64,000 nt of DNA from an uncultured bacterium (GTDB taxonomy: Bacteria; Patescibacteriota; Minisyncoccia; UBA6257; 2-01-FULL-56-20). The stretch covers positions 64,001 through 128,000 of the forward strand of contig CAWJQC010000008.1 of assembly GCA_963844965.1 (NCBI GenBank), written 5' to 3'. The notes under the pieces are model-generated. The model was given only the letters and a program-made list of their open reading frames with translations. It was not told the origin of the DNA and searched no databases. The stretch's first letter is position 1, and each line of letters opens with the position of its first letter. Shown piece after piece: positions 10,126 through 62,844 of the stretch. A program made the translations under genes and the position numbers.

Positions 10126-10270
10126 TCTTTAGCGGGCGCACCCGGTAGTGAAAACTCGACCGAATAATTTGCCGATTTTTTCTTTATCTCCAATTGTACC
10201 ATTATGATAACTCAATTAACCAACCCTGTGAATATTTTCTCCGCCTCTTGGCGGAGCAGTCAAGTTTCTA

Positions 10271-11793
10271 CTACCGGGCGTATTCTACCGCCCTCATTTC
10301 TCTTATCACGTTTACTTTAATCTCGCCAGGGTATTTTAACTCAGATTGTATCCTATTGGCAATCTCTCGCGCAAGTTCCAGAGCCCGGAAGTCGTCGATC
10401 TTTTCAGGCACCACGAATACGCGCAACTCCCGGCCGGCAGATATGGCGTAAGCGTTTTTGACCCCGGGGAATTCCATGGCGATCTTTTCAAGGTCCGCTA
10501 GCCGTTTTATATAAGCCTCGAGTGTCCCCCTGCGGGCTCCAGGCCGCGCGGCCGAAAGAACATCCGCCGCCGCAACCACATAGGCCTCCGGCGAAGCATA
10601 TGGGTAGTCGTCGTGATGCGACTGCATCGCCTCAATAACCCGGTCATTTATACCATATTTCTTTAAAATTTTTCTTCCCAGCTCCACGTGTGTTCCCTCA
10701 ACCTCATAATCTATCGCCTTGCCGATATCGTGGAGCAATGCTCCGCGTTTGGCCACATCAACGTTCAGGCCAAGTTCGCCGGCTATCATACCGGAAAGAT
10801 AGGCCATCTCAAGCGAGTGCGTCAGAACGTTCTGGCCGTAACTGGTCCTGAAATTCAAACGCCCCAAAAGCTGCAAAATCTCCTTGGGCAGGTCAAAAAT
10901 CCCGATGTCCTGAGCCGCCGCTTCGCCAATTTCCTGAGTACGTTTTTGAAGTTCGTCCTTCGCTTCTTCCACTTTTTCCTCAATTTTCGCCGGCTGGATC
11001 CGGCCGTCTTTTATCAACTTGTCCAAAGCGATCCTGGCCACTTCCCTACGGTAGGGGTCAAAAGAAGAAATGATGACGCTGTCCGGCGTTTCGTCTATCA
11101 CGAACTCCACTCCCGTCGCGCGTTCCAATGCCCTGATGTTTCTTCCTTCGCGTCCGATTATCTTCCCTTTCAGTTCTTCGTCCGCCAAAGGATACATAGT
11201 CGTCGTAATTTCCGAAACCTGCGACCGAGAATAGCGCTGAAGAGCCGTGGTTATTATACCCACAGATTTTTTCTCAATTTCCTCGTGATTTTCTTTCTCT
11301 ATTTTTTCAAGAGAACGCGCAAGATCTTCGTTATATCTCTCCTTGATCTGACGCAAGAGCTCTTCCTTCGCTTCCCCGGAACTCAATTTCGCAACGGACT
11401 CAAGCCGTGATTGGATTAAATTCTTTGCGGACTCCAGCTCCGTCTCTTTTGTTTTTATGGATTCTTCCTTGGCCCTCAAATTGCGCTCCTCGGCGCTCAA
11501 GGCATTGAGTTTTTTGTCCAAATTCTCCTCGCGGCGCAAAAGCCGGGACTCTAAAGAGTCAATCTCTCTTTTACGGTCGCGTTCTTCGTTTTTAAGCTCA
11601 ACCAAAAGCGAGGCGGCCTTATCCTTCGCCTCCAAAACAATCTCTTTCGCTTTGGTCTCCGCCTCTTCCCAAGTTTCTTGACCCGCTCTTCTGCCGAGCC
11701 TAACTTCTTAGATACCCAAAATTTCCTACCCAAGTAACCTGCCGCAAATCCAACTAAAACGGCGGCAACCATAAGTGCCGTTGAATTTCCCAT
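10271..11793 (-). CDS. rny: Ribonuclease Y (apparent frameshift near 11660 separates the N-terminal TM segment)
   Basis: The main ORF 10271..11635 has KH and HD domains (LLHDIGKAIDYE...SHHDDY). The N-terminal TM anchor (MGNSTALMVAAVLVGFAAGYLGRKF) is in ORF 11551..11793 in another frame. The junction lies beside a cggg run. Confidence 0.85.
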
Positions 11794-16080: not shown

Positions 16081-16110
16081 TTGACATTAAAGCTCAATCT
16101 GCTATAATGG
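16081..16110 (+). promoter_or_regulatory. Sigma70-type promoter TTGACA-N16-TATAAT
   Basis: The sequence ttgacattaaagctcaatctgctataat lies about 440 nt upstream of tRNA-Leu. No ORF follows it. Confidence 0.55.
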
Positions 16111-16384
16111 AACTAACCTTAGTAATTTCTCCTTTGCCCGGTAGTAGAACTGCGACGCCCTTGGGCGAGTTGTAAACTCTGAAACTGGGAAAAAATTCAC
16201 AATCAGCATTAACTCTATTTCATGCACAATCTGCGAGAATCAATAATCGCAGTTTCACTACCGGGCTTTGATTTAATGGGATTCTCGAACACCAAGGCGA
16301 CTGCTTTTTGGCTTTAATAATCAAGCTTGTTTTTCGTCTTTTGGGCAGATGGCGGAATCCGCCGAGGGCGGACAAGTCGGCAAA

Positions 16385-16400
16385 CCTGCCGGCAGGCAGG
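16385..16400. repeat. Partial copy (16 of 20 bp) of the palindrome CCTGCCTGCCGGCAGGCAGG
   Basis: The sequence cctgccggcaggcagg has full 20-bp copies at 50201-50220 and 59284-59303. Confidence 0.6.
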
Positions 16401-16547
16401 CGCACTGGCCAATCCTACAACCTTTTACAAAATAATTATGGGCGGGCGGTGAACCCCGCACCTTAGGAAGGCAGGACCGAAACGTAATTACTTCGTGGCC
16501 TTCCTAAGGTGACGGGGCAAGCTGGCAGATTTACCCCTCACCAATTT

Positions 16548-16631
16548 GCCGCGGTGGCGGAACTGGCAGACGCGCACGTTTCAGGGGCGTGTGAGAGCAA
16601 TCTCATGTGGGTTCAACTCCCACCCGCGGCA
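16548..16631 (+). tRNA. tRNA-Leu(CAG), type II with long variable arm
   Basis: Manual fold: acceptor GCCGCGG/CCGCGGC, D arm GCG-GAACTGGCAGA-CGC, anticodon arm CACGT-TTCAGGG-GCGTG (CAG), variable arm GAGA-GCAA-TCTC, T arm GTGGG-TTCAACT-CCCAC, discriminator A. Confidence 0.85.
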
Positions 16632-16649
16632 CATATAAAATTGGTGTGG

Positions 16650-16717
16650 GGACACGTAGGCTTCAGGAGCCTATGGCCGCAAGGCCGTGAGGGTTCAAGT
16701 CCCTCCTCGCCCACAGA
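16650..16717 (+). other. tRNA-Leu-like 3' fragment (anticodon arm to acceptor 3' strand) lacking a matching 5' half
   Basis: The fragment has anticodon arm TAGGC-TTCAGGA-GCCTA (CAG again), variable arm GGCC-GCAA-GGCC, T arm GAGGG-TTCAAGT-CCCTC and 3' strand CTCGCCC-A. No GGGCGAG 5' acceptor strand lies in position. It sits 18 nt after the complete tRNA-Leu. Confidence 0.55.
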
Positions 16718-16747
16718 AATTTATCACCTAATCGGTAAGACGTTGTC

Positions 16748-17359
16748 ATGATTAAATTAACAAAAAAAGATTTAGCTGGGCTTAGGAAGTTAAAAATAAC
16801 AGAGTTTCCGATAACAATGAGTTGTTTTATGTGTATGGCCTTCCCCCGGGTTAAGATTAGTGTCAAAGATACGACAATTTGGCGACAATTGCCCAATCCA
16901 GTGCCGTCTAACAGGATGTGCTTTCATATTAAGCACGATTTGGAATGTCCTTATTGCAAAGTTGGTTCGGTTTCTGCAGAAGAAGAAAGAAAAAAGTATT
17001 ATATTGAACCGGACTTCGAAGAAAAAATATTTGAAAGAGATAATTATACATGTCGGGCTTGTGGATATAAACAAAAGGGGAAACCTAAACCGGTTCCCCG
17101 TAGAAAAGAAGGGGAAACGGCCAAAGATTATTTATATAGAAGGTTTATGGCGAGTTTAGCAAAACACGATCAGAAAAAGTCATTATTCGTTGCTCATTTT
17201 CATGCGAGATACGGCAAAGAAACATACAAAAATAGGCACGAAATAGAGAATGCGAGAACGTTGTGTGTTGATTGTCATAACACCGAAACAGCGATGCATC
17301 AGATGTTGGGATGGATAGATAAAATGAATAAATGCCCCAGGTTAAAAAAACTTGAATAG
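16748..17359 (+). CDS. HNH endonuclease
   Basis: The HNH/Zn motif is CRACGY...LFVAHFHARYGKETYKNRHEIENARTLCVDCHN. The gene lies in an AT-rich (~38% GC) segment immediately after the tRNA-Leu genes. Confidence 0.7.
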   Translation: MIKLTKKDLAGLRKLKITEFPITMSCFMCMAFPRVKISVKDTTIWRQLPNPVPSNRMCFHIKHDLECPYCKVGSVSAEEERKKYYIEPDFEEKIFERDNYTCRACGYKQKGKPKPVPRRKEGETAKDYLYRRFMASLAKHDQKKSLFVAHFHARYGKETYKNRHEIENARTLCVDCHNTETAMHQMLGWIDKMNKCPRLKKLE

Positions 17360-21292: not shown

Positions 21293-22183
21293 CTAATCAA
21301 TAGCTTCTAACCACTCGACGGGCGTTTTCATATCAAGTCCCATGTGCGGCCGTTCGGTATTGTAGTAGTGAAGAAAATCGGGAATCTCCTTGCGCCACGC
21401 GGCAAGAGTGTTAGGGATACGTCGTAAACAGTCCCGCTGAAGCGTTTGGATGAACCGTTCCACATGGCTGTTATCTGTTGGCGTCCGTACGCGCGAGTGG
21501 CGATGTGAAAATCCCTGATGCTCGATGACCTTGGTAAACCATTTTGAAAACTCCCCGCCACGGTCGGATTGGATTGTGACGAAAGGAAACGGAGCTGCCG
21601 CTTGCGCTTGCTGGACGAACCGTGCGCTTAAGCGGCTTGAGACCTGGGCGGCTGGCCATGCCCACGCCCAACGGGAACATACGTCGATCAAGGCGTACGC
21701 ATGGAGGTGGTCCATGGCAATACCTTCTTGCATTGAATCGATCTCAACCAATATGCCTGGCTTTGTGGGCATGGGACGCGGAAGATACTGGTGCCACTTC
21801 TTCCATTTTGAATATCGCGTGATACCGTGGCGTTTGAGTGTACGCTTCACGGACGAAAGGCTAACGGCAATCTTTTCCTCTTCTAGCCGGTGATGGACGA
21901 TCTCCGCGCATTGGTCCCGTTCGCTGCGAAGTGCAAGGATGCGGCCAATGACCGCTCGGTCGAGTTCGCGTGGATGATGGTGCGGCCGCGATGAAAGCGT
22001 CGGGATGACAAGATGACCGCCTTCGCCATATTCCGTGCCCCGCTTCACCCATAACCGGACCGTACAATGGCTGAACCCATACTTCCGAGCGGCCTTGCGG
22101 ATACTCCACCCGGACTGCGTGAGCGCGACTGCTTCCGCCCGTACCCGGGGCAGATGGGGATTCTTGGTGTATGCCATGTACAT
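21293..22183 (-). CDS. IS481-family DDE transposase (rve integrase core)
   Basis: MYMAYTKNPHLPRVRAEAVALTQSGWSIRKAARKYG (HTH) ... IQSDRGGEFS ... TPTDNSHVERF (DDE). The ORF track extends the N-terminus spuriously. Confidence 0.8.
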   Translation of the reverse strand: MYMAYTKNPHLPRVRAEAVALTQSGWSIRKAARKYGFSHCTVRLWVKRGTEYGEGGHLVIPTLSSRPHHHPRELDRAVIGRILALRSERDQCAEIVHHRLEEEKIAVSLSSVKRTLKRHGITRYSKWKKWHQYLPRPMPTKPGILVEIDSMQEGIAMDHLHAYALIDVCSRWAWAWPAAQVSSRLSARFVQQAQAAAPFPFVTIQSDRGGEFSKWFTKVIEHQGFSHRHSRVRTPTDNSHVERFIQTLQRDCLRRIPNTLAAWRKEIPDFLHYYNTERPHMGLDMKTPVEWLEAID

Positions 22184-22219
22184 AGCTTTGCAAATTCTTG
22201 GGTGGTTACAAGCTATTGA
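21293..22219. mobile_element. IS481-family insertion sequence, ~925 bp, 18-bp imperfect terminal inverted repeats
   Basis: Left TIR tcaatagcttctaaccac at 21297-21314. Right TIR gtggttacaagctattga at 22202-22219 (17/18 match). It encloses a DDE transposase gene. Confidence 0.7.
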
Positions 22220-22448
22220 ACCACGACACAGTCTTGACAATCCGGATGGGTTAGAAAGGAAATTCCAAGATTTAAATAGATTTGTTAAGGGCAAAGGGGA
22301 AAGAGATCTAGAATTAATTACGACATTCCATTTCTTATCAAAAACAGAGGGGAGCGCAAAAGCGAAAGAGAGACTCAAGGAGTTGAAGGGGGCGACACCT
22401 GAAGAAATAAAATACGCCACGGAAGCAATTAAGCAAATTCCATCATAA
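22176..22448 (+). CDS. Hypothetical small protein, start uncertain (would begin inside the IS right end)
   Basis: The only in-frame ATG is at 22176, inside the IS terminal repeat. The product ends ...KELKGATPEEIKYATEAIKQIPS. It is AT-rich, and its stop overlaps the next start (ATGA). Confidence 0.2.
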   Translation: MYIALQILGWLQAIEPRHSLDNPDGLERKFQDLNRFVKGKGERDLELITTFHFLSKTEGSAKAKERLKELKGATPEEIKYATEAIKQIPS

Positions 22449-37270: not shown

Positions 37271-37601
37271 CGTGGCGGAGGAAAAAAATAATAAGCAGAA
37301 ACTCGCTGCTATCATCGCGTATGTAAGAAAACGGCGGAGGGAATCCAGAATAAAAATCGGCGTACCCCAGCCGCAAACCTCATGCTGGGGCGGTGGCATA
37401 GGAGAATTCGGCAATCTTGTTGAACTTAGTTTACCGTACAGACACGAAGAAGAATGGGATGAGCTCAAGGACCAGGAAACCCTTGACGGCGTACACCGGT
37501 ATGTTTCCTATAAACCGCCAAAAAAACCAGAAAAAATGAAGGGAGCCGCAATTAGCGGCCCTTTTTATTTTTTTTGGAGGTGCCTCACCCGAGGACGTTA
37601 G
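37271..37601 (+). CDS. Hypothetical protein (GTG start after AAGGAGGTG)
   Basis: About 110 aa. Its 3' end overlaps the repeated GGTGCCTCAC motif. Confidence 0.3.
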
Positions 37602-37672: not shown

Positions 37673-37701
37673 AGAACTGTGTTTGAGAGGAAAAACGATA
37701 C
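37673..37701 (+). promoter_or_regulatory. Promoter module TTGAGA-N17-TATATA with conserved spacer (copy 1)
   Basis: ttgagaggaaaaacgatacgacgtatatat. It is near-identical to a second copy at 38924-38953. The spacer contains the palindrome ATACGACGTAT. Confidence 0.5.
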
Positions 37702-39948: not shown

Positions 39949-40365
39949 TTAATAAACCCAGATTCCAATAGCAAGCAGGATAATCCGCACGAGCATAAAG
40001 GCAATTAAGTGGAGCATATAAAATATACCCTTTTCGAACATATCAATGCCCCAAATTTTGAAACAGATAAGAATGACGGCGGAGTGGACGATAAGGTAAG
40101 AGAAACTGCCAATTATCCGGTTGACAGATGGAGGAAGGCCGTTGGATTGGCGCATCCTTCCGAAAGTCATTGCGGTAAAAACGACAGAAACCAACACGAG
40201 GAAGATACCGATTACGATCGTTGGGATGAGGGGTGAAATAAACGATTGCCACAATTGCACGAAAGGCGCATCAAGGGCGTTAAATATCGGCTGGAGCATT
40301 TGGGTCGCCGAGGCGACAGCGCTGGAGGAATACACTGGGAAGATAACCGGCGGTGTAGATGTCAT
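39949..40365 (-). CDS. Hypothetical membrane protein
   Basis: The 138-aa ORF has 3 predicted TM helices. Confidence 0.4.
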   Translation of the reverse strand: MTSTPPVIFPVYSSSAVASATQMLQPIFNALDAPFVQLWQSFISPLIPTIVIGIFLVLVSVVFTAMTFGRMRQSNGLPPSVNRIIGSFSYLIVHSAVILICFKIWGIDMFEKGIFYMLHLIAFMLVRIILLAIGIWVY

Positions 40366-40431
40366 CCCAGCAACATACAGCAGTTATGGCGGGCTGGTCA
40401 ATTGGTGGCCGCGGGTTATATAATATCTTTA

Positions 40432-41667
40432 ATGAAAATCGAGAGCCAAAAACTCAACGTAACCGAGGCGTTTAAAAACTTCTATTACATCGTCCCGCCG
40501 TATCAGCGGGAGTATGTTTGGAAGGAGAGAAACGTTGCCCAGTTATTTAACGATATTTACGACGAATATACCAACGATAAAAACTCCGAATACTTTATCG
40601 GCAGTATCGTCGTAAATAAGCGTGAGGATGGCACATACGAAGTGATCGACGGCCAACAGCGATTAACCACTTTATTTATTAGTCTTTGTGCGCTTAAACG
40701 TGTGTTCAAAAATTCCCAAGATCATTTAAGCGTTATAGAAAATCTGCTCACTTCCCCGACGACGAACGATAAAGGCGAAATCATCCGCAGCTCCCATCTT
40801 GAACTGCAATATGAAGGCACAGCAGACATTTTACGCGATATTTTGAATGACAAGGAATTAAGCAAAAAAACGTCTGGTTCGGCAGAACACATCAAAGAAG
40901 CCCTCGAAACCATCCTCGAATACCTGAACGCAAACTTCAAAACAGAAAATGACCGAACGCGGTTTTATGGATATTTTATGCACAAGGTAAATTTTGTGCA
41001 GATTGAAACGCCGAGCGTGAGCGACGCTTTGAAAATTTTTGAAACGATCAATGAGCGCGGCGTTGGCCTGAATCCGATGGATTTGCTCAAAAATTTGATA
41101 TTTCAGCAATTGCCACGCGACGAGTTTCAAAAGGTTAATGTCGAATGGAAGAAAATAACGAGGACGTTGGAAAAGAATGGGCAGAAGCCACTCCGCTTTT
41201 TACGCTACTTCATAATGGCCAACTATCAGGTCAAGGATACTAAAGACGTCGAGGTTGTGCGTGAGGACGAGATTTACGACTGGGTGGTAAGACACGCCGA
41301 GGTTTGCGGCTATAGGAAAGATCCATTCGGGTTTGTGGGAAAAATCGCCACAGATGCCGAAGCCTACGTTTCATTTTTCAACGGTATGACGCTGGAGGGC
41401 AAGAATAGCGTCGAATTGGAAAACATCAGGAGCTTGGGCGGCGGTGCATTCAGCCAACATTTAGTTATGCTGCTTGCGGCCAAAGAGTTGCCCGAAGACC
41501 TTTTTCTTCATCTCGTTCGACAGGTGGAAAGCTTATCTTTTACTACTTCATTACGAAAACTCCCGCGAAAGCACTGGAAGCCCGTTTTTCCCGATGGGCG
41601 GATGATTTGCGTGATGTAGCGGGCGATGCAGATCAAAAAGCCGCCCTCAATAAATTCATAATGTAAA
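40432..41667 (+). CDS. DUF262 (ParB/Srx-fold, GmrSD N-terminal type) domain protein; apparent frameshift near 41550
   Basis: VPPYQREYVWKERNVAQLFNDIYDEY ... IDGQQRLTTLFISL are DUF262 hallmarks. The C-terminus continues in another frame (...KTPAKALEARFSRWADDLRDVAGDADQKAALNKFIM*). No DUF1524/HNH partner domain is present. Confidence 0.6.
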
Positions 41668-43611: not shown

Positions 43612-43790
43612 GTCCGCTTTTTGTTTTTCCCACTTCTGACAAATGAACTTTGTGTACGTCGTGTACGTCCTACGGGACCGGGGTAATTGCCCCGTTCAGC
43701 AGTCCTGGCAGTTTTTGCAAGTATTCCCCGAGTCCCAATAATGTCCACTATTTCCACCAAAAATAAAACGTCCCATTATAACGGGACGTT

Positions 43791-44438
43791 TTATTTTTGT
43801 ACATTCTGCACTCTCTCCACGTTGGCGCGGCGCAAAAGTTCGTCGCGGATCTTTTCGGCAACATCCTTGTCCAGGGCCGGCAAAATTCCTTCCGCTTCGC
43901 CGGTCTCTCCGGCTTCCTCGTGGCCGGCGGTCAAAATCGTAAGCCTACTCAAGCCGAACATCTGGTAAGACAAGTCGCGTTCGATCGTCGCATCCTGAAT
44001 CTGCCTATAAGGTACGGCGATTTCCTCCTTGTTGAATATTCCCCTCTTAATTTTCAAAGCGTTGTCGCCGAGGCAAAATTTATAATTCACGTACACAAGC
44101 CAGCCGACGAACGCAGTCACAAGGAAGACCGCAACAAATAAAGCGAACCCGAAAAAACATATCACATACATGTTCAAAGTAAACAAATTAAAAACATTCA
44201 GGGGCCCTGTTCCCTTTCCGACAAAAAACAACCCTAGAGAAACGAGCAAGACAATCATCGCGAGCCAGCTGCGGTCAAAAATAAAAAGCCAAAGCGTTTT
44301 GCTTCCCAAATTTTCATATTTTTCGGCGCTTGCGACCTCCGGTGTGTCGGGCATAAATTTATTATACCAAATACCAACTGAAACCAGAAATAAAAACGCC
44401 CCGAGTCTGATCGGGGCGCAGGTATCAGACAATAACAT
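43791..44438 (-). CDS. bPH_2 (YdbT-like) PH-domain membrane protein
   Basis: TM helices are followed by KIKRGIFNKEEIAVPYRQIQDATIERDLSYQMFGLSRLTIL. Confidence 0.5.
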   Translation of the reverse strand: MLLSDTCAPIRLGAFLFLVSVGIWYNKFMPDTPEVASAEKYENLGSKTLWLFIFDRSWLAMIVLLVSLGLFFVGKGTGPLNVFNLFTLNMYVICFFGFALFVAVFLVTAFVGWLVYVNYKFCLGDNALKIKRGIFNKEEIAVPYRQIQDATIERDLSYQMFGLSRLTILTAGHEEAGETGEAEGILPALDKDVAEKIRDELLRRANVERVQNVQK

Positions 44439-46139: not shown

Positions 46140-46146
46140 ACCATGA

Positions 46147-46263
46147 ATCCCGTTAGAAGCCACGGTCGCGTTGCGGAAAACACCTATCGGGATAAAAATA
46201 AGGATTGCGAATTATAAATATAACCATCAGCAGGCGCCGACCGCGACCTGCTTCTAACGGGAT
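46147..46263. repeat. Inverted-repeat mini-element with 14-bp perfect TIRs ATCCCGTTAGAAGC/GCTTCTAACGGGAT
   Basis: The arms are at 46147-46160 and 46250-46263, with a nested stem GGTCGCG/CGCGACC. The right arm overlaps the rpmI start codon. The same CCCGTTAGAA arms recur at 50107/50221. Confidence 0.6.
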
Positions 46264-46429
46264 GAAAAAAAGTGTTTCCAAAAGAATCAGAATCACGAGG
46301 AACGGCAAAATGATGCGGCGGCCGATGGCCACCGATCATTTTCGCACGCGCCACACGCAAAAAAATATAAGGCGTAAATCAAAAACGCTCGGAGTTGACT
46401 ATCCGAGGAAAAAAATCGTAAACTACTAA
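46262..46429 (+). CDS. rpmI: 50S ribosomal protein L35
   Basis: The 55-aa basic protein MKKSVSKRIRITRNGKMMRRPMATDHFRTRHTQKNIRRKSK lies between infC and rplT. Confidence 0.7.
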   Translation: MKKSVSKRIRITRNGKMMRRPMATDHFRTRHTQKNIRRKSKTLGVDYPRKKIVNY

Positions 46430-49465: not shown

Positions 49466-50128
49466 CTATGGCAAAGTAATTCGCGGAGGCGACGATTTTC
49501 TCTCCATCCTCGAACCATCCAATTTCGGAAAAAGCATGAGAAGAAGTGAGGATGCGATCAAATTTAGAATTGCCGCCACGGCAAAAGTCGTTCTAAAGCC
49601 ATAAGCATCGGCAATTATCCCGCCAATCGCGCCGCCGACGGCAGTGGAAACGGTCAGACCGAAAACGCTGAATATGCTCCACTCAACACCCTCGGAAACC
49701 TTGTCAACGTGATGCGCGAAGATCGTATAGTAAGCAGCCATAAGACAAGCATCGCCGACCCCGCAGACGGCTTCCATTACGTATAACTGCCAGGTAAACT
49801 TTATGAACATTAAGGTTAAGGGATAAACAACGCCTATCGCGCAGCCCAAAAGCATCACGCGGAAATCGTCTTTTTCCCCGGATTTTCTGTCTATTCTTCT
49901 CGCAATCGGTATCTGGAGAATTGATTTCACTATCGCGTAGATGGCGATCGCGAAACCAGCCGTTCTTAGGCTCGCCCCGACGAGCGTGCCCGTGATGAAA
50001 ACCGCGAAAAGCGGCGCGAAAAGTCCGCCGCTCGCGTTCAGGATAAACAGGAAAAAAAGCAGGAGTTCAATTACCCTATTTATGGAAATGTTCAGTTTTA
50101 TTCTCATCCCGTTAGAAATAGGGCGCAA
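49466..50128 (-). CDS. MFS transporter, 6-TM N-terminal half only (truncated or half-size)
   Basis: Six TM helices with motif A (IARRIDRKSGEKD) after TM2. No second half lies downstream, because polX starts 18 nt later. Confidence 0.45.
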   Translation of the reverse strand: MRPISNGMRIKLNISINRVIELLLFFLFILNASGGLFAPLFAVFITGTLVGASLRTAGFAIAIYAIVKSILQIPIARRIDRKSGEKDDFRVMLLGCAIGVVYPLTLMFIKFTWQLYVMEAVCGVGDACLMAAYYTIFAHHVDKVSEGVEWSIFSVFGLTVSTAVGGAIGGIIADAYGFRTTFAVAAILNLIASSLLLMLFPKLDGSRMERKSSPPRITLP

Positions 50129-50233
50129 CGCCGCCGCTCGTCCTCTTTATTATTTAATATTCGGCCATTTTGTTGATGTAATATCCGCAAAGCGTCCGCG
50201 CCTGCCTGCCGGCAGGCAGGATTTCTAACGGGA
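50107..50233. repeat. Inverted-repeat mini-element: 13-bp TIRs TCCCGTTAGAAAT/ATTTCTAACGGGA enclosing the 20-bp palindrome CCTGCCTGCCGGCAGGCAGG
   Basis: The arms are at 50107-50119 and 50221-50233. The palindrome is at 50201-50220. The element lies between the half-MFS and the clp-like gene. Confidence 0.6.
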
Positions 50234-50237
50234 CCCA

Positions 50238-52813
50238 TTACTGTTTTACTATCTGATCTCCCAGTTCCACAAAACCGACCTCGTCGCCCTGCGTCGTGAG
50301 TTTTATATGGCTCCCGTGCTCAACTTTTTTCTCCAAAATTTTCTGCGCGAGCGGCGCGCGCAATTTTTCTTCTATCACGCGCCGCAGAGGTCTCGCGCCG
50401 AACGCGGGATCATATCCGATCCGCGCGAAAAGTTTTATAACCGCCGGATCAATTTCCATCTTTATCCCCTGCTCGCTCACCAACTCTGCGACATCCTTAA
50501 GATTCAGCGCGACTATTTTTTCCAAATCCGCCGGCTCTAAATTTTTGAACACGACAATCCGCGAGAACCTGTTCAAAAGTTCTGGTTTGAAAATGTCGGT
50601 CAGTTTTCTCTTCAGATAGTCGGCGATCTGCGCCACCGATTGACCCTGGCTCAGGGCGTCATTGATGATATCCGAATGGGCATTAGAGGTGGCGATTATA
50701 ATCGTGTTCTCAAAATCAACCGTGCGGCCGAGATTATCCGTGAGCCGGCCATCGTCAAACACCTGCAAAAATAAATTCAAGATATCAGGGAAGGCCTTCT
50801 CAAATTCATCCAAAAGGATCAAACTATACGGCTTTTGCAGAATCGCGTCCGTCAAAGCTCCGCTTACCTGGCCATCGGGCGTTCCGATAAACCTGAAAAA
50901 ACTCTGCTTATCCTGATATTCCGTCATGTCAAACCTCACCATTTCCTTATCCGAACCGAATTGGACCTTCGCCAAGATTTTGGCGAGTTCGGTTTTGCCG
51001 ACGCCGGTCGGACCGACGAAAAGAAAACTGGCGATCGGTCCGCCTGGCCGCGCGAGCCCGCTCCTGTACTCGCGCAGGGCATCCGCCACGACCCCCACCG
51101 CCTCCTCCTGGTCGATCATCCGTTCGTGTATTGTCTCCTCCAACTTGAGAAGTTTTTGCGCCTCGGCTTCGGTTGCCTCGTGCAGCGGAATATTTACCTT
51201 TGCTTCGGCCACGCTTACCACCCTGTCCGGCCCCACGTACTTTTCCCCGCGCCTTTGGGCGTCAACCAAAGCGCTCTTCAATATCTCCTCGGCGCTTGAA
51301 GGCAGAAATTTACTGCGCAAATATTTTTTTGCGAGCACAACCGCCTTCTTTATCGCGCCGAAACTTATGGTTACCCTGAACTGACGCTCGAGTATCAGAC
51401 TCTCGTAGGTTAAAATTTTTTCCGCGTCGGCGACGCTCACTTCGCTCACCCTGATTATTTCAAACGCGCCAGCAAAATCGCTACGCGGCTCTATGAACTG
51501 CTTGAAGTCGCGCGGAAAAGTGAGCCGATCACCGGAAAGGCATTGTTTGTTATTATCGGCATCAAGGCATCAGCGGCGGAAATGTACGCGGCGCCGGAGG
51601 TGCGCACCAAGTTGTGTATGTTCGGGATGTAAATGATGATGTTCCCGGCGATGGTGATTTCTTCAATTATGTCTTTGAGCCGCGCGGTCAGTACTTCGGG
51701 CGGCGCGCCCGCCACAAGACTTTCAAGCTCAAGCGACACCAACCGCTTGTCAAACAACGCCGGCGGAACTTCGTCCTTAACAAGTTCCGCGGCGAGGTGA
51801 GAAATTATGGTTTCCTTGCCGATGCCGGCCTCCCCGACCAAAATAGCGTTGGGATTTATCGGCCGCGCCAACACTTCCACCAGCCGTTCAAACTCCTCTT
51901 TGTGACCGATCAAAAAACCGGTCTGATTCTGGCGGGCAAGATCGGTAAAGTCGGTTGAATATTTATCAAGGGTAGGCGTCGGCCGCGACGTCCACGCCCT
52001 ATTCATTATGCGGTGTCGTATTTTCGGAGCACCAAACACAAAAAAGCCGCCGAGCGTCACTGGAATGCGGCGACTCATACTATGACCCAGGGAACTGAAG
52101 ATCATAGCGCGCTCAAGGTCGCCTACCTCGATCCCAAAAATGTTGAAAAGTCGGCTCATGGCTTCGTTTTTGACGAGAGGCATCGCCGAAAACAGGTCAC
52201 TTGATTCTATGAAGTTGTGGCTCGCGCCCATGGCCTGTTCCAAGGCCAAAAGCACGAGCGTTTCCGCGTTCGCCAATCTATCTTCTTTGGAAATCGCGGA
52301 CCACTCCCCGCTTTTTGAACTCTCGCCGAGAAACGCTTCTGTTTTCTGTTTGAATTCCTCTGGTTTTACATCAAGACGCTTTAACCCCTCTTCTATGTCG
52401 GACAAATTTAGAAGCTGATGCGCCGTTTCCAGAAAGAAATTCTGCTTGGTGATCATGCTCCGGTCAAATGCCCTCTCCAGGGCGGCGAACGCCTTCGGCC
52501 GCAGATAACTCGCCATATTAACTCTGCCTCTTTTCGGCAACTCTATAAGCGGCTTGTCGCCCTCGTTCAGGTGGAGAAAGCGGTCAAACAGGAACAAAGC
52601 GAGAAATATTCCCGCATAGCGCAGTCCCCAGACCCCGGAGAGAAGAAACGAAGCCGCCGTAGCCGCAGTCACGAGGTACATCACATAACTTAGAACTCTT
52701 ACGAATAATCTGCCCGGAAACGTCATCAAGAGTCGCGGGTCCTTATAACAGAAAACCGGACCCTCTCCAGCGACGCCCGCTGACGCTGTTCCTTTACTAT
52801 TTTCTTCGCTCAT
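50238..52813 (-). CDS. Clp-family double-AAA+ ATPase with N-terminal transmembrane helices (apparent frameshift near 51470)
   Basis: ORF 51491..52813 has two TM helices, a Clp_N-like region and AAA-1 (VGEAGIGKET). ORF 50238..51449 has AAA-2 (FLFVGPTGVGKTELAK ... sensor motifs). The frames are joined through a T4 run. Confidence 0.7.
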
Positions 52814-59230: not shown

Positions 59231-59328
59231 GTTTATGTTTTCCATTCCGCAATCCTGCCCCGCTCTACTGGCGGGGGGGTATTCCTGCCTGCCGGCAGGC
59301 AGGCTTGCGGGGAAAACATAAAACAAAT
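59231..59328. repeat. Inverted-repeat mini-element enclosing the 20-bp palindrome CCTGCCTGCCGGCAGGCAGG (59284-59303)
   Basis: The arms are gtttatgttttcc (59231-59243) and ggaaaacataaaac (59311-59324), with an inner CCCCGC/GCGGGGG stem. It sits in the 300-bp spacer between the MBL RNase and the LOG-like gene. Confidence 0.5.
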
Positions 59329-62082: not shown

Positions 62083-62650
62083 TCAGAATCTTAAGCGCAG
62101 CCTTCAACCGTTCTTCCAAATTAACAATTTTCTCGTCAACTTTTCCGAGCGCTGCCTTGGCCTGTTCGCGGCGGTAGCCCAAGCCGACGAGCGTCTCAAC
62201 GAGGTCAGCGTCAACCTCCATTTTGCCCACGGCAATCTCGGATTTTTCTGATTGTACTTTGCTCTTCAATTCCAGAATAATCCGCTCGGCCGTTTTCCTG
62301 CCGATCCCCGACGCGCGCGTGAGCAAATCCGGTCGCCCCTCTTTGATGGCTGCCGCCAAATTTTTCAGCTCGGCAACTTCCATTATAGACAACGCCGACT
62401 TCGGCCCCACGCCGGAAACGGAAATCAATAGCTCAAAAAAGTTCAATTCGGCTTCCGTCAGAAATCCGTAGAGTTCCAGTCCGTCCTCGCGCATATGCAA
62501 ATGACAGAAAAATTTAACGGCCAAGCCAATGGGTGGTAAAGCACCCAGCGTGCGACCGCTTACAAAAACCTTGAGCCCCAATCCAGCCGCGTCCACAACC
62601 GCGAAGTGTTCGCTCTTTGACATCAGTTTGCCCGAGACGCTGTAGAGCAT
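62069..62650 (-). CDS. ruvA: Holliday junction branch migration protein RuvA
   Basis: MLYSVSGKL...GLGLKVFVS...LISVSGVGPKSALSIM...ASGIGRKTAERI. Confidence 0.85.
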   Translation of the reverse strand: MLYSVSGKLMSKSEHFAVVDAAGLGLKVFVSGRTLGALPPIGLAVKFFCHLHMREDGLELYGFLTEAELNFFELLISVSGVGPKSALSIMEVAELKNLAAAIKEGRPDLLTRASGIGRKTAERIILELKSKVQSEKSEIAVGKMEVDADLVETLVGLGYRREQAKAALGKVDEKIVNLEERLKAALKILSGKV

Positions 62651-62844
62651 ACCCAGTAGAGGAATTTCGAATTATAACTTTCGGCTTTCTCGACTAAGCC
62701 GTTGACTTGTTCCCGTTGCGCTGATGGTGAAATTGTCCATAAAATAGGTGTTCGGCAGTAGGCGTTCGAAATTCTCCTACTGGGCATAATTCAATTATAC
62801 GGCTACTTGCACTTTTTTTCATATGCCATATACTGAAACCTAAC

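Follow-up and report, generated by a model that had tools for sequence, protein, structure and literature searches.

We examined a 64,000-nt stretch of DNA from an uncultured bacterium (assembly GCA_963844965.1, contig CAWJQC010000008.1, positions 64,001 to 128,000 of the forward strand), hereafter the window, for small inverted-repeat units situated between its genes. The ribosomal protein L20 encoded in the window showed affinity to Patescibacteria (candidate phyla radiation, CPR), near 'Candidatus Liptonbacteria' and other Parcubacteria. Two of the units, designated A1 and A2, are bounded by inverted arms containing the 10-mer CCCGTTAGAA and end on a start codon, A1 on that of rpmI (ribosomal protein L35, plus strand) and A2 on that of an MFS transporter gene (minus strand). 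The distal arm of each begins 4–8 nt past the stop of the upstream co-directional gene, which is infC for A1 and a ClpB-like ATPase gene for A2. The second subject of this analysis is a 20-bp palindrome, CCTGCCTGCCGGCAGGCAGG (PAL), found inside A2 and at one further place. The features concerned are listed below, where ORF stands for open reading frame and P1 and P2 for the terminal and the inner helix of an arm-bounded unit.

46148–46262, plus strand: arm-family unit A1, 115 nt, TCCCGTTAGAAGC…GCTTCTAACGGGA, in the infC-rpmI gap, ending on the A of the rpmI ATG.
46144–46147, plus strand: left copy of a TGAA duplication, which together with A46143 makes an upstream ATG (ATG1).
46143–46217, plus strand: leader mini-ORF of A1, opened by ATG1; translation MNPVRSHGRVAENTYRDKNKDCEL, then stop.
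46263–46266, plus strand: right copy of the TGAA duplication; the terminal A46262 and the following TG form the functional rpmI (L35) start codon.
50107–50233, minus strand: arm-family unit A2, 127 nt, with a secondary PAL insertion, between the ClpB-like stop (50238–50240) and the MFS ATG (50107–50105).
50104–50238, minus strand: leader mini-ORF of A2, spanning the whole unit; translation MGPVRNPACRQAGADALRILHQQNGRILNNKEDERRRCALFLTG, then stop.
50201–50220, no strand assigned: PAL copy 1, between helices P1 and P2 of A2.
59284–59303, no strand assigned: PAL copy 2, exact, within an unrelated local hairpin.
59231–59324, no strand assigned: hairpin around PAL copy 2, made up of an outer stem GTTTATGTTTTCC/GGAAAACATAAAAC (one-base bulge), an inner stem CCGCAA/TTGCGG and a G/C hairpin.
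16385–16400, no strand assigned: 16-nt PAL variant, one CCTG short, in a structured leader 148 nt upstream of tRNA-Leu.

An initial annotation, made from the letters of the window, had reported PAL at 50 and 59 kb, its 16-nt version at 16 kb, perfect 13-nt inverted repeats around the 50-kb copy (50107–50119 and 50221–50233) and perfect 14-nt inverted repeats at 46 kb (46147–46160 and 46250–46263), and all of these were found as described. The arms of the 59-kb copy had been said to differ, and they are indeed unlike the CCCGTTAGAA arms, real but imperfect on account of the one-base bulge. The further statement that all copies are intergenic holds in general, but the gene-proximal arm of both CCCGTTAGAA units takes in the A of the start codon (at 46262 for rpmI and at 50107 for the MFS gene) and reads into that codon as TTCTAACGGGATG. 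The assignment of the rpmI start is supported by the Pfam family Ribosomal_L35p, which matches from residue 2, and by the homologue in a related contig (L036), which begins MKKSVTKRI at the equivalent ATG. The window has no exact copy of the 10-mer CCCGTTAGAA other than the four in the arms, while about 0.12 exact matches would be expected per 128 kb by our own arithmetic; with one mismatch allowed there are six occurrences against 4.9 expected, which is not above chance. The 12-nt core of PAL, CCTGCCGGCAGG, occurs three times against 0.12 expected, and none of 100 shuffled sequences reached three. Folding of each unit, which the annotation had proposed, showed those at 46, 50 and 59 kb to be far more stable than their shuffled counterparts (z = −3.7 to −6.7), the 16-kb PAL-variant site being unremarkable (z of about −2).

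Further copies of both sequences, which the initial annotation had suggested looking for, were abundant. A metagenome scan with both exact CCCGTTAGAA arms at unit spacing matched at least 120 stretches, and PAL was found in at least 155 stretches elsewhere. All figures on the arm family given below rest on 127 distinct units from the listed matches, the total being at least 127. The 11–13-nt termini TCCCGTTAGAA(RY) are common to these 127 units; the search itself required them, so that the perfect conservation of the arms is partly an effect of ascertainment. Arms of the variant form CCCGTTAGAG turned up without having been required by the search, among them one in a named metagenome-assembled genome of Parcubacteria (L161), where the variant occupies the same gene setting, and other arm variants exist too. 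These counts bear directly on the possibility that the four loci are coincident local hairpins without a common origin. The arms at 59 kb and the context at 16 kb are unique, and the one-mismatch count of the arm 10-mer fits such a coincidence as well, but it is refuted by the recurrence of exact arm pairs with a common anatomy and by that of PAL, for which control palindromes gave no match at all; we regard it as extremely improbable.

The common anatomy is summarised by the gene-oriented consensus ATGAA-TCCCGTTAGAA-RY-CGCGRWC…GWYCGCG-NYCT-RY-TTCTAACGGGA-TGAA. The terminal helix P1 comprises 13 bp (TCCCGTTAGAA-RY), of which the two inner pairs covary. P2 comprises 7 bp (CGCGRWC/GWYCGCG), is clear in 48 of 116 units and covaries at two positions (GC/AT and TA/AT). 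Between the two helices, a 4-nt bulge NYCT (ACCT, TCCT or ATCT) is present on the gene-proximal strand only, and the top of the element is variable and A/T-rich. Similarity between the interiors of units is near random (median identity 0.56 vs 0.55 for shuffled interiors). The polarity of the interior agrees with the direction of the gene 65:2. A covariance model of the family (R1), used to score the window, favoured the gene orientation by 14–32 bits for both units, with 69.1 bits on the plus strand vs 37.4 on the minus strand for A1 and 50.9 bits on the minus strand vs 37.0 on the plus strand for A2.

The same comparison separates the loci that the initial annotation had united as one palindrome-centred family with modular cores. 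PAL is present in only one of the 127 listed units, and the 59- and 16-kb loci have nothing but PAL in common with the arm-family loci. The 59-kb hairpin, which begins 3 nt past the stop of a minus-strand beta-CASP RNase gene, gave no R1 match, and its arms are unrepeated in the other fetched loci. The four loci thus represent two unrelated kinds of insertion, nested by chance at 50 kb, and are treated separately from here on.

Units of the arm family are 84–136 nt long, mostly 117–120 nt with modes at 117 and 120 nt; this is within the size of a miniature inverted-repeat transposable element (MITE), under about 600 bp, and they carry only short leader ORFs and no transposase ORF. In 116 of the 127 units (91%), exactly one end forms CGGGA/TG, and the ORF that follows has a median length of 186 codons; a start-codon-flush end would be expected by chance at a rate that we estimate at about 12%. 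The flanks, where target-site duplications had been proposed for checking, carry identical 4-mers on both sides in 78 of 115 listed units (68%), with three of four positions matching in 16 more. TGAA is the most frequent duplication (52 units), followed by TGGA (12), TGAG (5) and TGCG (4), and A precedes the upstream copy in 80% of the units; the duplicated target may be 5 bp (ATGAA) instead of 4 bp. Flanking duplications (for example, TAAA, TCAA, TTGA and CATG) are present, too, in nine of the 11 units without a flush ATG, and because of these the flanking repeats are to be read as target-site duplications and not simply as two start codons. The flanks in the window fit the family, with TGAA/TGAA at 46 kb and TGGG/TGAG (three of four positions matching) at 50 kb.

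Genes downstream of 99 listed units fall into 121 Pfam families, none of which recurs more than twice, and include SecY, DNA polymerase A, aminoacyl-tRNA synthetases, PGK and MurJ. With so many unrelated families, the units do not constitute a regulon, and the suggestion that the arms are binding sites of a regulator is disfavoured by the housekeeping nature and diversity of these genes. Units whose interiors are 78–86% identical occupy sites with unrelated flanks, which indicates dispersal. Tandem units are also present, for example in L121. The arm pattern had no match in viral contigs.

Relatives of the window were collected as contigs whose L20 homologues are 85–90% identical to that of the window; L numbers denote fetched loci in general. 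The gene order infC-rpmI-rplT / NUDIX-PolX-MFS-Clp is retained in these fetched contigs, and occupied and empty sites could be compared at three places.

infC-rpmI site: occupied in the window and in L286, which has its own unit with ATGAA…TGAA flanks; empty in L036 and L281 (19-nt spacer) and in L285 (ATGA overlap).
Clp-MFS site: occupied in the window alone; empty in five relatives (L036, L037, L281, L284, L286), where the genes overlap or are 3–6 nt apart.
NUDIX start site: occupied in L037–L040 and L286 by a 113-nt CCCGTTAGAAGC…GCTTCTAACGGG unit; empty in the window.

Both window loci thus have counterparts without a unit, of the kind that the initial annotation had asked for as empty-site alleles. 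The units of L286 and the window at the infC-rpmI site have conserved arms and diverged interiors. At the same site, L037 (9742–9835) contains an unrelated 85-nt filler rich in CCCGAAT/ATTCGGG repeats, then ATGAAT-ATGAG before rpmI. This last sequence resembles a footprint left by excision of an arm element (duplication, T, A, duplication); footprints of the form ATGNN-TA-TGNN were found to be no commoner than control versions with other dinucleotides, and the case of L037 is an anecdote.

Two standard explanations for a hairpin at these positions were considered and rejected. An L20 leader, that is, a translational operator of infC-rpmI-rplT, does not agree with the lack of an Rfam match, the absence of the 115-nt insert from L036, L281 and L285 and the presence of the same element at unrelated genes. 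An intrinsic terminator is excluded by the absence of a T-run after the arm units, which end in a start codon.

The position of the units has a consequence for the gene that receives them. Since the terminal base of the element is an A and the duplicated TGNN comes next, the gene retains an ATG; this rebuilt ATG is the true start by homology from residue 1–2 for L35, RuvA and the MFS gene. The upstream copy of the duplication leaves the original ATG 5 nt ahead of P1, and the leader that it opens reads M-N/G-P-V-R-S/N… in the units. In 40 of 84 units its frame runs through the interior without a stop, vs 14% in the other two frames (p = 3e-13). The excess depends on where the frame would end: it is open in 25 of 41 units whose length places the end at a TAA in the 3′ arm, 7 nt before the ATG of the gene, in 12 of 28 where the end is a TGA overlapping that ATG, and in 3 of 15, the background level, where the frame would fuse to the protein. 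Of the two leaders in the window, the one at 50 kb is uninterrupted over 44 codons, from an ATG overlapping the Clp stop (TAATG) to a TGA overlapping the MFS start (ATGA), and the 46-kb leader ends after 24 codons with a stop at codon 25; in the L286 unit the stop is at codon 11. Shine-Dalgarno-like motifs are almost absent upstream of about 59 long ORFs of the window, and many adjacent genes overlap as ATGA or TAATG. Without such motifs, initiation should depend on unstructured sequence around the ATG. In the scheme that we propose, ribosomes would bind at the upstream ATG, whose native surroundings are unstructured, translation of the short leader would melt P1, and termination at the 3′-arm TAA, or at the TGA overlapping the real ATG, would be followed by re-initiation. 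Essential genes would then stay expressed and the insertion would be tolerated, with start codons acting as a safe harbour. We lean slightly towards such translational coupling, in which the leader hands ribosomes to the gene, as the reason why the element is tolerated.

The selectively open leader also agrees with a different explanation, namely that the arm hairpins are cis-regulatory RNAs of the host, translational operators that hide the start codon until an upstream ribosome, or a protein or RNA acting in trans, opens them, and that have been selected without being mobile. The strongly conserved P1 takes in the start-codon A, P2 covaries, the orientation to the gene is fixed (65:2), and the infC-rpmI site is occupied in two diverged genomes with arms conserved and interiors diverged, all of which speak for an operator. 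Such an origin is opposed by the 4-bp flanking duplications, which include those without an ATG, by the empty sites of close relatives with ATGAA intact, by related copies at unrelated genes, by the 121 different gene families downstream and by tandem units as in L121; in addition, no unit matched Rfam, whether at gathering thresholds or at E values up to 5. We therefore consider a purely regulatory nature distinctly unlikely, although the hairpin may have gained a regulatory role after insertion.

As far as the arm-bounded units are concerned, the duplications, further copies and empty sites support the initial annotation in its suggestion of a small family of non-autonomous elements with terminal inverted repeats. 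We conclude that the CCCGTTAGAA units are probably a non-autonomous, MITE-like foldback mobile element of bacteria of the Parcubacteria type (CPR). Integration would generate a 4-bp target duplication with the consensus TGRR, usually TGAA, preceded by A, with a single orientation and, in nearly all cases, a start codon as its site. An orientation-specific mechanism of integration is plausible in view of the fixed orientation and of a duplication that is both constant and asymmetric.

Such a mechanism need not involve a DDE transposase. Site-specific recombination, acting on a folded or circular intermediate, could move the units: their joined ends, TTCTAACGGG-ATGAAT-CCCGTTAGAA, make up a dif/lox-type inverted-repeat site (10-6-10), and its asymmetric core, (A)TGAA, would set the orientation and recur at both ends. 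Apart from the orientation, a recombinase would account for a flanking repeat that is nearly always one short asymmetric sequence with an A at −5 conserved like TG, for the apparently precise empty sites and for the missing transposase, and the layout of P1, bulge, P2 and variable top, with its conserved extrahelical NYCT on one strand only, resembles the folded attC sites of integron integrases. The target flanks, on the other hand, have no conserved arm-like binding sites beyond ATGRR, the flanking repeats vary (TGAA, TGGA, TGCG, TAAA, TCAA and others) as they would after a staggered cut, the order GTTAGAA…TTCTAAC is reversed relative to attC core sites, and no integrase or cassette array lies nearby. 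On balance, this route is fairly unlikely.

Several points weigh against the arm element being a mobile unit that targets start codons and survives there by coupling. Neither the window nor about 1 Mb of fetched CPR loci yielded an autonomous copy or a transposase with arm termini, and the mobility of the element is thus inferred from its products only. As the initial annotation had stated, no transposase of the window adjoins matching arms, the sole rve-type gene (21293–22420) having no arm motif nearby. A long arm pair of 2.7 kb in L132 was considered as an insertion sequence and rejected: it encloses genes for methionine aminopeptidase and adenylate kinase and represents two solo arms. The 91% association with start codons could reflect targeting or the survival of harmless insertions, and the orientation bias, too, could come from selection after insertion and not from targeting. 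Perfect arms with near-random interiors are unusual for decaying MITE copies, and the arms may have a function at the level of the host. About half of the units have an early stop in the leader frame, so that a full-length leader ORF is not required. Folds of the coding strand and of the reverse strand were indistinguishable in energy and in the number of G-U pairs; they do not point to a structure specific to RNA, and the structure could act as DNA or RNA. Finally, the statistics of the arm family are inflated, as the units are not phylogenetically independent.

PAL differs from the arm element in distribution and context. At 50 kb, A2 has the canonical arrangement …GAAAT/CGCGGAC… with the 20-mer inserted between P1 and P2, and comparison of the sequences indicates that PAL is a separate small insertion of exactly 20 bp that makes no target duplication. 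It was found in 35 stretches of viral contigs with a G+C content from 38 to 68% and unrelated flanks, and two control palindromes of matched composition were found in none. Among species-representative genomes, at least 120 stretches have PAL as well; the hosts include many Patescibacteria lineages, Omnitrophota, Planctomycetota, Bacteroidota, Gamma- and Deltaproteobacteria, Bdellovibrionales, Thermodesulfovibrio and Chloroflexi, and among them are the cultured Bacteroidota isolates Winogradskyella echinorum, Flagellimonas yonaguniensis, Flavivirga sp. and Longitalea luteola. Another three CPR loci, chosen without regard to PAL, contain it too, and a mirror-image 16-mer of the 16-kb variant is present in the relative L037 at 18728. 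Exact copies far outnumber variants with one to three mismatches.

No target duplication accompanies PAL; its commonest junction is A/T (24%), and its flanks have no conserved bases other than a weak A at −1. Fewer copies of PAL than of random sites lie in long ORFs (45% vs 84%), and its gene contexts comprise 46 co-directional, 11 convergent and five divergent gaps and 14 positions inside called ORFs. In many cases PAL occupies the loop or a junction of a hairpin that was there before. In partial 5′ duplicates of tRNA genes located just upstream of the intact tRNA, comparison with the latter shows PAL as an exact 20-nt indel (L243, L190, L175), and in two loci PAL is nested in the centre of another PAL (CCTGCCTGCCG, PAL, GCAGGCAGG; L178 at about 1058–1100 and L202 at about 455–497).

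Several other arrangements were recorded around PAL. In L243, L190 and L175, the tRNA fragment with PAL lies directly upstream of the intact tRNA gene with no nuclease; at L197 (2095–2485), L266 (3680–4065) and L032 (485–880), a tRNA 5′ fragment with PAL in its D-loop or anticodon arm is followed by a small GIY-YIG nuclease ORF and the intact tRNA gene. Ten tandem copies of a PAL variant, CATGCCTACCGGCAGGCAGG, with a 21-nt period occupy 3916–4125 of L034 (IMGVR_UViG_3300025106_000007), and six or seven PAL or PAL-like copies each were counted in L023 and in the contig behind L021, L028 and L029. At many loci (for example, L261, L242, L240, L205, L001, L210 and L009), PAL stands between 7–9-nt tandem-repeat units (AATTACG, TCTAAAA, CCTCACC, GTGAGAG), and these short tandem repeats yield apparent direct repeats of 7–14 nt on both sides. 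Two trivial origins of PAL were considered. An intrinsic terminator was rejected, no T-run following the palindrome. A sequencing or assembly artefact is unlikely, given its presence in isolate genomes and in the output of different assemblers, its avoidance of coding sequence and the clean indel in contiguous sequence.

PAL may be either a minimal mobile hairpin that is moved in trans or a dyad conserved as a binding site for a protein. If PAL is mobile, its identity across phyla implies a broadly transferred enzyme. An immobile PAL would be a site conserved for its recognition by a widely transferred DNA-binding protein, whether as operator or as plain binding site, in the manner of parS and CIRCE, which are palindromes shared across phyla, or else a favoured stabilising hairpin. 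Its perfect dyad, its position mostly outside genes, its one to few copies per genome stretch and the phage contigs with many copies, one of them with the 10-copy tandem variant array, suit a binding site. The exact 20-nt indel in tRNA-fragment duplicates, the nesting within itself and the insertion in another repeat element do not, nor was a common neighbouring gene found; the missing T-run speaks against a terminator, and the absence of equally stable control palindromes against a generic hairpin. We consider an immobile PAL somewhat unlikely. Mobility, in turn, has to accommodate three adverse observations. PAL lies in predicted hairpin loops in 25% of cases vs 13% of control positions, an enrichment of only about twofold. 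An all-against-all comparison of 3577 ORFs within 3 kb of PAL revealed no protein family in more than six of 155 loci, and the six-locus family is the small GIY-YIG gene that lies between PAL and tRNA genes. A protein-binding site would also account for the tandem arrays of a PAL variant that one phage contig carries.

Taken jointly, the two sequences could represent two undescribed mobility phenomena: a start-codon hairpin integrated throughout Parcubacteria genomes by orientation-specific machinery (possibly a recombinase acting on a folded single strand or on the joined-end 10-6-10 site), bringing its own replacement A and a ribosome-handing leader, and a minimal mobile module, PAL, inserted by an enzyme in trans into the loops of other hairpins (tRNA-like fragments, other repeats and further PAL copies) and spread with identical sequence across phyla and phages. 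We offer this combined picture tentatively and consider it less likely than not. The nature of PAL is possibly the more novel question of the two.

Three further foldback units in the window had been missed in the initial annotation.

10141–10278, no strand assigned: second-family unit, arms CCCGGTAGTGAAAACTCGAC / GTCAAGTTTCTACTACCGGG, in the gap between RNase Y and a Wzy-like gene.
16136–16266, no strand assigned: second-family unit, arms GCCCGGTAGTAGAACTGCGA / TCGCAGTTTCACTACCGGGC, with CTTTG on both sides, just downstream of a sigma-70-like promoter.
62649–62787, minus strand: foldback unit, arms ATACCCAGTAGAGGAATTTCGAA / TTCGAAATTCTCCTACTGGGCAT (ACCCAGTAGAGGAATTTCGAA), abutting the RuvA start codon (62650–62648), with TATG on both sides.

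The first two share arms of the form GCCCGGTAGTAGAA…TTTCACTACCGGGC and make up a second foldback family, of which no copies were found in the other fetched CPR loci; the stop codon of RNase Y (TAG, 10271–10273) lies inside an arm of the 10141–10278 unit. The unit at 62649–62787 has a layout like that of the arm family and a different sequence, and the RuvA_N domain of the adjoining gene matches from residue 1. Uniting these three GGTAG-arm units with the arm family was considered and rejected: all three are similar to it in layout, but R1 detects none of them, and they are therefore listed as separate foldback units.

The 16136–16266 unit belongs to an unusually long and structured tRNA-Leu leader region (16082–17359). 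A strong TTGACA-17-TATAAT promoter (16082–16110) is followed there by the foldback unit, the 16-nt PAL variant and a 19-nt hairpin (16454–16516), and the tRNA-Leu gene itself (16548–16632) is bracketed by a 14-nt inverted repeat (16534–47 and 16638–51), with an HNH endonuclease ORF (16748–17359) after it. In a gap between convergent genes (43758–43799), a 21-nt near-perfect palindrome has the centre TCCCATTA/TAACGGGA, like two arm-family arms joined without an interior, and gives a weak R1 match of 12 bits. The 21-nt sequence GGGTGCCTCACTAAAGGACGT is present in three copies at 37578, 38547 and 39558, about 1 kb apart and 81–100% identical, and a second repeat pair lies at 37682 and 38923. The ClpB/ClpC-like ATPase gene upstream of A2 (50238–52813, minus strand) is split into two ORFs (51491–52813 and 50238–51449), its relatives being single genes of 823–857 aa; the split represents a frameshift, a pseudogene or an assembly error, and no repeat element is found at the break. 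The rve-family (IS481/IS3-like) transposase gene mentioned above and a GmrSD-type restriction endonuclease gene (40246–41619) are not associated with the repeats studied here.

CPR/Patescibacteria genomes are tiny and densely packed, and their mobile DNA has been little studied. If our interpretation of the arm element is correct, the colonisation of start codons, a position that no gene lacks, made harmless by rebuilding of the ATG and by a leader, would be a new strategy of selfish DNA in compact genomes, and the element would be informative on translation initiation without Shine-Dalgarno signals. PAL, if mobile, would be among the smallest mobile sequences known. For annotation, gene callers will tend to stretch N-termini into the arms (artefacts of the type ISNGM… or MNPVR…) or to call spurious small ORFs. 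The arm units can also serve as presence/absence markers for strain tracking in groundwater metagenomes.

Literature searches by sequence string and by topic found neither the arm element nor PAL described, their incomplete coverage leaving room for an earlier description. The closest analogues of the arm element are the bacterial MITEs of 100–160 bp from transcribed intergenic regions, Correia/NEMIS in Neisseria, ERIC/IRU in Enterobacteria and RUP in Streptococcus pneumoniae. They have a TA duplication and no fixed position relative to start codons, are co-transcribed with their neighbours and can affect expression. The arm element shares with them terminal inverted repeats, foldback structure, short duplications, dispersed copies and the lack of coding capacity. 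Unlike them, it duplicates TGAA-type 4-mers, sits on a start codon in 91% of the listed copies, rebuilds the ATG with its own A, keeps a fixed orientation and carries a selectively open leader.

In attC sites, RYYYAAC stands at the 5′ end (R″) and GTTRRRY at the 3′ end (R′), and cassettes form an array beside intI. The arm units resemble them in having a conserved basal helix with heptamers like GTTAGAA/TTCTAAC, a second helix, extrahelical bases confined to one strand and a variable top, as well as in their length (about 60–140 nt) and in the location just upstream of the next ORF. They differ in that GTTAGAA comes first and TTCTAAC last on either strand, in the flanking duplications and in their housekeeping neighbours. 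Identity with attC was rejected on this inverted order of core sites; with regard to context, the units are single at housekeeping genes, with no integrase beside them in the window and no cassette array.

REP/BIME sequences are mobilised by RAYT (a Y1 HUH transposase), are species-specific, start with 5′ GTAG and occur in hundreds of copies beside the RAYT gene. PAL is like them short, palindromic, rich in G+C and extragenic, mostly with co-directional or convergent genes on either side, but it is identical across phyla, lacks GTAG, is low in copy number and has no RAYT neighbour among the 155 loci. Some variants of the arm contain GTAG, as REP elements do.

Two systems are comparable in the way an insertion is tolerated. 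The 'byp' elements of Magnusiomyces mitochondria and the hop in phage T4 gene 60 are bypassed within an ORF by ribosome hopping. With these, the arm element has in common a structured insertion, a short direct repeat as paired decoding sites and harmlessness in translation, but its repeat is the initiation codon, and the positions of its stops point to termination and re-initiation and not to hopping. Rickettsia palindromic elements (RPE), of about 100–150 bp in a reduced genome, lie in-frame inside coding sequences and become part of the protein; no transposase is known for them. The arm element is likewise palindromic and tolerated through translation, but it stays outside the mature protein, and the class in which the leader would fuse to it shows no enrichment of open frames (3 of 15). 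From known MITEs and RPE, the arm element is thus distinguished in four linked ways, namely its position on the start codon, the regeneration of the ATG, the fixed orientation and the selected leader ORF.

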